Origin: Enterobacteria phage FtMidnight
Strand: one strand, 5' to 3'
Sequence record: PP430152.1
Length of the DNA: 40,995 nucleotides
Positions 34,344 through 35,122 of this stretch are shown here, one piece after another. The stretch's first letter is position 1; each line of letters begins with the position of its first letter. Below the pieces are notes generated by a model. That model was not told the DNA's origin. It was given only the letters and a program-made list of their open reading frames with translations, and searched no databases. The position numbers and the translations under genes are program-made.

Positions 34344-34586
34344 ATGAACTTCAAAAACTGGCTTAACACCTTCATTGACGAAAAAGGCATTGACCGTGAA
34401 ACCATCATTGAAGCGGAAGGCGCAAGCGGCACAAACTTCATTCCTGTTGGTTGCCTGCTGGAAGCAATCGAAGCCGCCCCGGCCAATGAGCAACAGGGCA
34501 TTAAAGCAACGCTTGTGAAAATCGACTTTATGAACGGTGATGTTATGCACTTCCTGAAACACCTTGCAAAAGCCATTGCAATTTAA
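34344..34586 (+). CDS. hypothetical small early protein
   Basis: 80 aa from ATG 34344 (RBS ACGGTGA); an upstream ATG at 34311 would be near-leaderless. Confidence 0.45.
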   Translation: MNFKNWLNTFIDEKGIDRETIIEAEGASGTNFIPVGCLLEAIEAAPANEQQGIKATLVKIDFMNGDVMHFLKHLAKAIAI

Positions 34587-34608
34587 CCAACCAAAAGGAA
34601 CCGCAAAG

Positions 34609-34773
34609 ATGAACGTATATCAAGAAAACGGCTATGAAAACCGCCGCCATTACCTTGAATGCCTTGCTGAAGATACCGGGCATGACCTTCAAACCGTTTT
34701 GGCGCTGGCTGACTTACTTGGCCCCAATGAAGATTTTGACGGCCTTGTAACCAGCCTTGAAGACGGCTTCTAA
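34609..34773 (+). CDS. hypothetical small acidic early protein
   Basis: 54 aa from ATG 34609 (RBS AAAGGAA); strongly acidic. Confidence 0.4.
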   Translation: MNVYQENGYENRRHYLECLAEDTGHDLQTVLALADLLGPNEDFDGLVTSLEDGF

Positions 34774-34891
34774 AATAGCCCCTGACAGCCCCGCCAAGCG
34801 ATTTTAACGGCGGGGCGCTACCTACCCCTTACCCTATACCAGAAAAGCCCGCCACGGCGCGGAATGATGCCCACAATTGGAGCCTTGACCC

Positions 34892-35122
34892 ATGACCCTA
34901 ACCGAAAAGCTGCAAACCCAAGATTACAACGCCGTTATCAATGATGATGGTTTTATCCAACTCACCAGCGGTAAGACCATGCCAATCAAGCTTGTGACGA
35001 AGCGCGGGCGCATTCAGTACATTTCTGAAACTGGCGAATTGCAAGGAACGTCACCGGCAACACCGCAAGGCTTTGCAAAATTTGTTGAAAGCTTTTGGTA
35101 TTGGAGCAAAGCCAAACCGTGA
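34892..35122 (+). CDS. hypothetical small early protein
   Basis: 76 aa; RBS GGAG; followed by a strong terminator. Confidence 0.45.
   Translation: MTLTEKLQTQDYNAVINDDGFIQLTSGKTMPIKLVTKRGRIQYISETGELQGTSPATPQGFAKFVESFWYWSKAKP

Follow-up and report, generated by a model that had tools for sequence, protein, structure and literature searches.

A three-gene accessory cassette follows the FtMidnight primase gene

In the genome of the Enterobacteria phage FtMidnight (sequence record PP430152.1; the window, i.e. the whole 40,995-nt stretch of DNA analysed here), three small open reading frames (ORF1, ORF2 and ORF3) follow the primase/helicase gene. FtMidnight is a siphovirus and the first tailed double-stranded DNA (dsDNA) phage shown to be F-pilus-dependent (bioRxiv 10.1101/2023.03.19.532758). 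Comparative sequence analysis identified the three ORFs as a horizontally acquired accessory unit in a hypervariable slot after the primase gene, and homologues of two of them, ORF1 and ORF2, were found in co-oriented gene arrays of conjugative plasmids. By analogy with those arrays, the cassette might act in establishment, anti-defence or host takeover, a role that we propose tentatively and with slightly less than even confidence. Phages commonly carry small accessory cassettes in variable slots. What is noteworthy is the sharing of ORF1 and ORF2 between phages and plasmids, together with the unusual conservation and abundance of ORF2.

A preliminary description of the window had listed genes of 80, 54 and 76 amino acids (aa), each with its own ribosome-binding site (RBS), and all three were found on the plus strand (Table 1). 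Shine–Dalgarno-like sequences could be read before every start: AAGGAA 9–14 nt before ORF2, TGGAG 10–14 nt before ORF3 and, weaker than these two, GGTGA 8–12 nt before ORF1. GenBank begins ORF1 at position 34311 to give a protein of 91 aa, nearly at the 5′ end of the predicted transcript; the family alignment favours the 80-aa start. For comparison, two close FtMidnight relatives (L008 and L009) assembled from public sequencing runs were used. Both retain the promoter, all three ORFs intact and both terminators, and their differences from FtMidnight in ORF1–3 are concentrated at third codon positions. Between ORF3 and its L008 counterpart, for example, 10, 5 and 22 differences fell at codon positions 1, 2 and 3, with 14 codons changed synonymously and 12 non-synonymously. 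Since the ORFs are kept in the relatives and have mostly third-position changes, the three-gene observation was confirmed, and the codon pattern indicates that ORF1, ORF2 and ORF3 are real genes under purifying selection. It is very improbable that one or more of them is not a functional gene. ORF3, with two homologues only and an exact sequence that has no NCBI source in the protein collection searched, would be the candidate for this, but the third-position bias is seen in all three ORFs, the ORFs are intact in three genomes, RBS-like sequences precede them, and full-length homologues of ORF1 and ORF2 number in the hundreds.

The placement of the genes between a promoter and a terminator was borne out by consensus-based prediction, with TTGACG-17-TATTAT upstream and an 8-bp stem followed by T8 downstream. 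A motif specific to this phage, TTGACR-N17-TATTATTGAA, has six copies in the genome, one of which is the cassette promoter. The extended −10 element of these copies, TAT[AT][AG]TTGAA, lies in each case exactly 17 nt after TTGAC[AG]; it is never found in the genome without its −35 hexamer, and all six copies lie within 30.9–38.6 kb. Because six of six extended −10 copies have TTGAC[AG] at this distance, the cassette promoter is not a chance match. An intrinsic terminator of the primase gene, identical in L008 and L009, sits immediately 5′ of the cassette, and the terminator that ends the cassette is kept in both relatives. These predicted signals fit a separate unit transcribed by host sigma-70 RNA polymerase. 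The same promoter class also serves several units of the rightward arm, and one that reads leftward in the direction of the replication genes, nucleotide-metabolism genes included, and since the class is common to both, the cassette appears to be co-regulated with DNA-metabolism genes. ‘Early’ expression is plausible, judged solely from the sigma-70-type promoter class shared with the replication genes.

ORF1 and ORF3 were absent from 87 related phages in the database. ORF2 was present in few of these and at another position, further downstream after RusA (Bhz54 and Baskent_P4_1). The DNA of the cassette had no match in 50,697 phage records, nor in E. coli genomes; the structural genes of FtMidnight have ∼74% DNA identity to Burkholderia phage KL1 and the Pseudomonas phage 73/Ab26 group. 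In KL1, the slot right after the primase gene (L196, 8367–9361; gp44–gp46) holds three small lineage-specific genes encoding 100, 118 and 87 aa, which are unrelated to FtMidnight ORF1–3 and have no counterparts in phage 73. As KL1 carries different small genes there, the post-primase slot, judged against KL1, Bhz54 and Baskent_P4_1, is a hypervariable accessory position, which suggests that the FtMidnight/KL1 group has a recurrent hotspot for accessory genes there. The ORF1 and ORF2 families occur together only in FtMidnight-like genomes, and no neighbour of ORF1 in phage contigs is common to more than 7 of 85 loci. With co-occurrence restricted to these genomes and no conserved neighbour, ORF1 and ORF2 behave as independent mobile modules.

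This organisation recalls that of phage morons, which likewise have their own promoter and terminator, occupy a variable slot between conserved genes and are acquired horizontally; in FtMidnight the transcription signals are predicted ones. The cassette differs from morons in two respects. Classical morons are expressed from prophages, whereas the material examined held no evidence of lysogeny for FtMidnight, and the cassette promoter is a member of the phage's own promoter class.

ORF1 and ORF2 homologues occur in conjugative plasmid arrays

The three proteins had been described as lacking any recognisable motif. This held for Pfam and NCBIfam, where ORF1–3 matched nothing, for the PADLOC defence models (no match at E ≤ 1) and for PDB sequences, searched with single sequences and profiles. 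It did not hold for ORF1, which is a member of phrog_6004, nor for the large homologue families to which ORF1 and ORF2 belong. By these searches, the ORF1 family is already catalogued, the ORF2 family is missing from the libraries searched and ORF3 is an orphan.

Residues 1–79 of ORF1 align with positions 2–84 of the 88-position phrog_6004 profile (E = 7.8e-27), a full-length family match. There are 60 homologues among 5.8 billion clusters, mostly of exactly 80 aa, and 91 IMG/VR loci. Searching with tblastn returned 94 phage records with identity up to 54%, 82 of them from Mycobacterium phages and the remainder from phages of Methylophilales, Vibrio, Bacillus, Leptospira and Tenacibaculum. Marine phages are also among the carriers of ORF1 homologues. 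ORF1 is 42–54% identical to the mycobacteriophage members of phrog_6004 (e.g. LeBron gp124 and Thonko gp97) and has the same length of ∼80 aa and the same invariant EK...IDFxNG signature (E13, K14, I60, D61, F62 and N64 in the family alignment); the FtMidnight copy differs in being the only one seen in its siphophage group. Membership of phrog_6004 names ORF1 but explains nothing, because every member is uncharacterised. Family members scanned singly against Pfam gave no consistent match, and the family profile, like that of the ORF2 family, retrieved only noise from the PDB (e.g. the HicB3 C-terminus at E = 2). The AlphaFold2 model of ORF1, with a predicted local distance difference test (pLDDT) score of 91.5, consists of a helix, a beta-hairpin and three helices. 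On the linear Clostridium perfringens phage-plasmid pCPC216_2 (L173, 3527–4183), a 218-aa protein has an ORF1-like domain at its C-terminus and no Pfam match in its N-terminal part.

ORF1 homologues were present on 56 plasmids, 47 from Bacillus and the others from Mycobacterium, Rhodococcus, Clostridium and further genera, and 32 of the 56 are typed as conjugative. On a 26.7-kb Tcp-type Bacillus plasmid (NZ_CP043502.1), the homologue (15899–16171) lies in an operon with ssb, a thermonuclease gene and a gene for a SprT-like peptidase. ORF2 homologues were found on 24 PLSDB plasmids, all but one from sphingomonads, with 18 of the 24 typed as conjugative. On the sphingomonad MOBP/MPF_T plasmids, the ORF2 homologue belongs to an array of ∼20 kb whose co-oriented genes point towards mobC and the relaxase gene. 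In Sphingobium (NZ_CP081004.1), this array begins with rep, toprim, thermonuclease, a large ParB-like protein, ArdC, Fic, DUF3768 and uncharacterised small genes. It continues with the ORF2 homologue (36140–36400), a DUF4942-methyltransferase, DUF6884, a sigma-like protein, a recombinase, ssb, parAB, mobC and the relaxase. The assignment of ArdC on the sphingomonad plasmids is solid (ArdcN, 5.9e-40; MPTase-PolyVal, 8.4e-43). On NZ_CP012702.1, a plasmid of Sphingopyxis, the start of the methyltransferase gene lies 3 nt past the stop codon of the ORF2 homologue.

Outside the sphingomonads, the ORF2 homologue of a Peribacillus megaplasmid adjoins LPD1 and LPD28 polyvalent-protein domains. In Paenibacillus xylaniclasticus (NZ_BIML01000001.1; L180, 4796–9299), its neighbours on either side are a 1013-aa N6-methyltransferase–SNF2 helicase fusion and a DnaN-like clamp, and a GmrSD_N protein is encoded 5 kb downstream. 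A second ORF2 neighbour with a clamp domain was seen among the IMG/VR loci. On the sphingomonad and Tcp-type Bacillus plasmids, homologues of ORF2 and ORF1, respectively, thus stand in co-oriented arrays with genes for single-stranded DNA-binding proteins (SSBs), thermonuclease, ArdC or SprT-like peptidases and orphan methyltransferases.

The plasmid arrays that carry ORF1 and ORF2 homologues resemble leading regions and establishment regulons. Leading regions of plasmids are co-oriented, enriched in anti-defence genes, orphan methyltransferases and SSBs, and have gene families in common with phages (PMC11541004). The establishment regulons of the pLS20 family contain ardC, thermonuclease and many uncharacterised small genes (PMC8708921). 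Like the small genes of these arrays (PMC11541004, PMC8708921), ORF1 and ORF2 are small, acidic, uncharacterised and shared between phages and plasmids. The two families are not among the named anti-defence genes of leading regions, and the FtMidnight cassette has a promoter of the dsDNA type rather than a single-stranded-DNA promoter. On this analogy, ORF1 and ORF2 are reasonable candidates for proteins that help incoming DNA to establish in a new cell.

ORF2, a predicted acidic three-helix protein, represents an abundant family

The middle gene had been singled out as very acidic, in agreement with the pI of 4.05 and the 12 Asp/Glu against 2 Lys/Arg residues of ORF2 (net charge approximately −10). 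No fewer than 235 protein clusters make up its family, which is also found at 582 or more IMG/VR loci. Members are 61–78% identical to ORF2, and the alignment contains 13 invariant positions around the motif LLGPNEDFDGLVTSLED. Phages retrieved by tblastn infect Janthinobacterium, Stenotrophomonas, Pseudomonas, Variovorax, Vibrio and Synechococcus, and ORF2 is 52–80% identical across phages of Proteobacteria and Cyanobacteria, from coliphages to cyanophages. Seventeen genome loci in highly diverse taxa were also found. No member of the family matched Pfam, NCBIfam or PHROGs v4, and no consistent Pfam match emerged when members were compared one by one. In two IMG/VR loci (L011, 3891–4668; L012, 4391–5168), ORF2-family paralogues are arranged in tandem, the first as the C-terminal part of a 175-aa ORF whose N-terminal part has no Pfam match.

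ORF2 is predicted to form an acidic three-helix bundle with a UBA-type fold (model pLDDT 85.4). Foldseek searches with the model returned nothing significant, and hmmsearch of the family profile against the PDB gave only noise and did not retrieve EF-Ts. When the ORF2-family alignment was compared with that of the EF-Ts N-terminal domain by hhalign, the probability was 0.1%; given this negative profile–profile test, the resemblance to EF-Ts is at the level of the fold only. The conserved surface also differs: in UBA-like bundles, the EF-Ts N-terminal domain included, it is the first loop, whereas in ORF2 it is the turn between helices 2 and 3.

We considered that ORF2 might instead be a small helix-turn-helix (HTH) transcription regulator, or a mimic of DNA or of a metal-binding loop, rather than a protein-binding module. 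In the alignment, L16–D35 fits the classical HTH pattern LAEDxGVDxxTVxxLA, single family members have weak matches to HTH_41, HTH_10, HTH_IclR and RuvB_C, strong acidity is a property of DNA mimics, and N40–E51 loosely resembles an EF-hand loop. However, the HTH matches are isolated (E ≥ 0.01) and the sequence pattern is not accompanied by conserved basic or polar residues in the putative recognition helix; since the protein is so strongly acidic, DNA binding is unlikely, and ORF2 was rejected as an HTH DNA-binding protein on charge. The EF-hand reading of N40–E51 was likewise discarded, as the pattern is broken at positions 1 and 4 and residues 43–53 are helical in the model. A protein of 54 residues could mimic only a few base pairs unless it were oligomeric. 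We regard this group of explanations as decidedly improbable.

The ORF1 and ORF2 proteins are both acidic and, in confident models, compact and devoid of the features of DNA-binding proteins. Acidity and a well-folded structure are typical of small protein-binding inhibitors.

Possible roles of the cassette

Small early proteins such as these had been put forward as candidates for anti-defence or host takeover. The promoter–genes–terminator cassette, the accessory nature of its genes and the plasmid arrays are in keeping with that proposal. Small acidic phage inhibitors (T7 Ocr, Gp2 and Gp5.9, T4 AsiA and anti-CRISPRs) are similar in size, acidity, separate early-type transcription and accessory distribution, although no similarity in sequence or fold to a solved example was detected and ORF2 is far more conserved across host phyla than such inhibitors usually are. 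If ORF1 and ORF2 function in this way, they would act soon after DNA entry, each by one-to-one binding of a conserved host or defence protein. They could aid the establishment of the incoming element in either of two ways, namely by neutralising restriction-type defence or by redirecting a factor with which the host handles DNA. The contact surface of ORF2 would likely be the invariant acidic turn E41-D42-F43-D44-G45, plus R12 and Y15.

Several results weigh against a role in establishment, anti-defence or takeover. No similarity in sequence or, for the modelled ORF1 and ORF2, in fold was found to characterised anti-defence or takeover proteins with solved structures (Ocr, ArdA, Acb2, Tad1/2, anti-CRISPRs, Gp2, AsiA and others), and the literature held nothing on the cassette genes or their motifs. 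The phage neighbours of ORF1 and ORF2 vary widely and seldom have an annotation; those that do are DNA-metabolism genes, and neither methyltransferases nor anti-restriction genes are enriched. In a Pfam census of 146 ORF2 neighbours, DNA-metabolism domains and DUFs turned up here and there, again with neither of these two functions enriched. The plasmid association of ORF2 comes down essentially to one sphingomonad backbone plus two or three more elements, and the position of oriT is deduced solely from the mobC–relaxase operon. For ORF3, comparative information is confined to two near-identical relatives. Finally, ORF2 is unusually conserved: an inhibitor specific to one host would not normally be so similar in phages whose hosts are unrelated, and 52–80% identity between phages of Proteobacteria and Cyanobacteria suggests a universal target, maybe a replication or translation factor and not a defence.

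This last point leads to an alternative to which we assign a substantial minority chance, namely that ORF1 and/or ORF2 are accessory factors for replication, recombination or the conversion of single-stranded DNA (ssDNA) to dsDNA, e.g. adaptors for primase, SSB, sliding clamp or nuclease. A partner that is conserved universally would be in line with the extreme conservation of ORF2; the cassette has the primase gene on one side and, on the other, an AT-rich, origin-like repeat region of 460 nt; and its promoter class is common to replication and nucleotide-metabolism genes. Homologues are found near ssb, toprim, thermonuclease, RusA, DNA polymerase, DnaN-like clamp, Thy1 and NinG genes, and plasmid establishment regions also serve ssDNA-to-dsDNA conversion (PMC8708921). 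Yet most phages with the same replication module lack these genes, no neighbour is conserved across the ORF1 or ORF2 families, and the polymerase and primase types found alongside them are very different, from T4-like cyanophages to siphophages and plasmids.

Returning to a role in establishment, a more specific proposal would be that ORF2 represents an uncatalogued, extremely abundant family of acidic UBA-like mini-proteins that serve lytic phages of many bacterial phyla and conjugative plasmids as an ‘establishment factor’, binding one universally conserved host protein or a widespread restriction-type defence at the entry of foreign DNA, with ORF1 as a second, independent factor of this kind. 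In this detailed form, we consider the proposal speculative and rather unlikely.

F-pilus-dependent phages are of interest for targeting the carriers of resistance plasmids, and to know which accessory genes of FtMidnight act against the defences of host or plasmid is relevant to its host range. Given the conservation and abundance of ORF2 and the recurrence of both families in plasmid arrays, ORF1 and ORF2 are cheap, well-defined candidates for a function shared by phages and conjugation, and the confident models of these proteins of 80 and 54 residues help their candidacy. Should they only assist replication, or lack a phenotype, the cassette would be typical phage dark matter.

ORF3 is restricted to FtMidnight-like phages

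Among the 5.8 billion clusters, ORF3 has only two homologues, one 97% and the other 84% identical to it, and each comes from a 40–41-kb contig of a close FtMidnight relative. No match was found in phages, 72,556 plasmids or E. coli genomes. Within the same genome pair, ORF3 has diverged faster than ORF1, with 84% versus 99% amino-acid identity. The exact protein was present only in Logan assemblies and had no NCBI source in the protein collection searched, and ORF3 is for this reason possibly unannotated in the GenBank record. This basic, lineage-specific protein is probably a host-specific or F-plasmid-specific accessory factor.

The F plasmid encodes the PifA abortive-infection system, which excludes T7. 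The cassette might help FtMidnight to compete with other mobile elements or to manipulate the F plasmid or its pilus, through superinfection exclusion, a block to conjugation or the countering of PifA, with ORF3 as the lineage-specific component. Both the restriction of ORF3 to FtMidnight-like phages and its faster divergence would suit such a function, as would the finding that FtMidnight infects only cells with F conjugation machinery (bioRxiv 10.1101/2023.03.19.532758). However, the cassette has no homology to F-plasmid, exclusion or Pif-related proteins, nor does ORF3 match anything in the plasmid and E. coli collections, and ORF1 and ORF2 are found mostly in phages unrelated to plasmid-dependent infection. 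This explanation is unlikely.

Transcription signals and the adjacent non-coding region

The coordinates of the cassette, its predicted signals and the upstream gene are listed in Table 1. The gap of 118 nt between ORF2 and ORF3 contains a stable G+C-rich hairpin that is conserved in L008 and L009; it could serve for processing or stabilisation, or act in part as a terminator. Four more near-consensus sigma-70 sites were seen at 31618 (minus strand), 31625 (plus), 35632 (plus) and 40938 (plus). On the coding strand of the structural arm (1–22 kb), there were three weaker 10/12 promoter matches, none of the three with TTGACA.

Table 1. Features of the FtMidnight cassette and its surroundings (positions in the window; promoters, terminators and hairpin are predictions)
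Feature	Position	Strand	Description
Primase/helicase gene	31866–34202		Upstream of cassette; phrog_3022 match, E = 1.9e-286
Primase-gene intrinsic terminator	34233–34250 (feature to 34255)	+	6-bp G+C-rich stem, T run; −11.3 kcal/mol, z = −2.3
Cassette promoter	34274–34302 (to 34306 including TGAA)	+	Sigma-70-type TTGACG-17-TATTAT; 10/12 consensus match
ORF1	34344–34586	+	80 aa, isoelectric point (pI) 4.95; GenBank FtMidnight_35; phrog_6004 member
ORF2	34609–34773	+	54 aa, pI 4.05; identical (100%) to GenBank hypothetical protein FtMidnight_36
Hairpin GCCCCGCC-N13-GGCGGGGC	34788–34816	+	ORF2–ORF3 gap; 8-bp stem, 13-nt loop, no U tract; −18.5 kcal/mol, z = −2.75
ORF3	34892–35122	+	76 aa, pI 9.05; orphan limited to FtMidnight-like phages
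Cassette-ending intrinsic terminator	35140–35162 (feature to 35170)	+	8-bp stem, 7-nt loop, T8; −12.4 kcal/mol, z = −2.67
Six class promoters, TTGACR-N17-TAT[AT][AG]TTGAA(N)CA	31010, 34274, 36360, 37245, 37484, 38548 (span 30982–38580)	−, +, +, +, +, +	Phage promoter class that includes the cassette promoter

The ORF3 terminator is followed immediately by an AT-rich region of 460 nt without coding sequence (35163–35631; GC content 19–33%), which carries four direct copies of TTACTATTT (35225, 35407, 35578 and 35592) and inverted copies of AATAGTAAA. Among FtMidnight relatives its sequence is divergent and the repeat blocks are retained. It has the primase gene to its left and, to its right, a gene whose product resembles primase at the C-terminus, and is a candidate replication origin or regulatory region. 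Past the cassette, the rightward arm encodes a 243-aa protein, a RusA-like protein, dCMP deaminase, uncharacterised proteins, endolysin and spanin. The C-terminal ∼90 residues of the 243-aa ORF (35632–36363) resemble the C-terminus of the FtMidnight primase (phrog_3022 positions 687–775, E = 1.6e-9) and also match phrog_29311 (E = 4e-20), and this part of the protein may be a duplicated DNA- or origin-binding domain.

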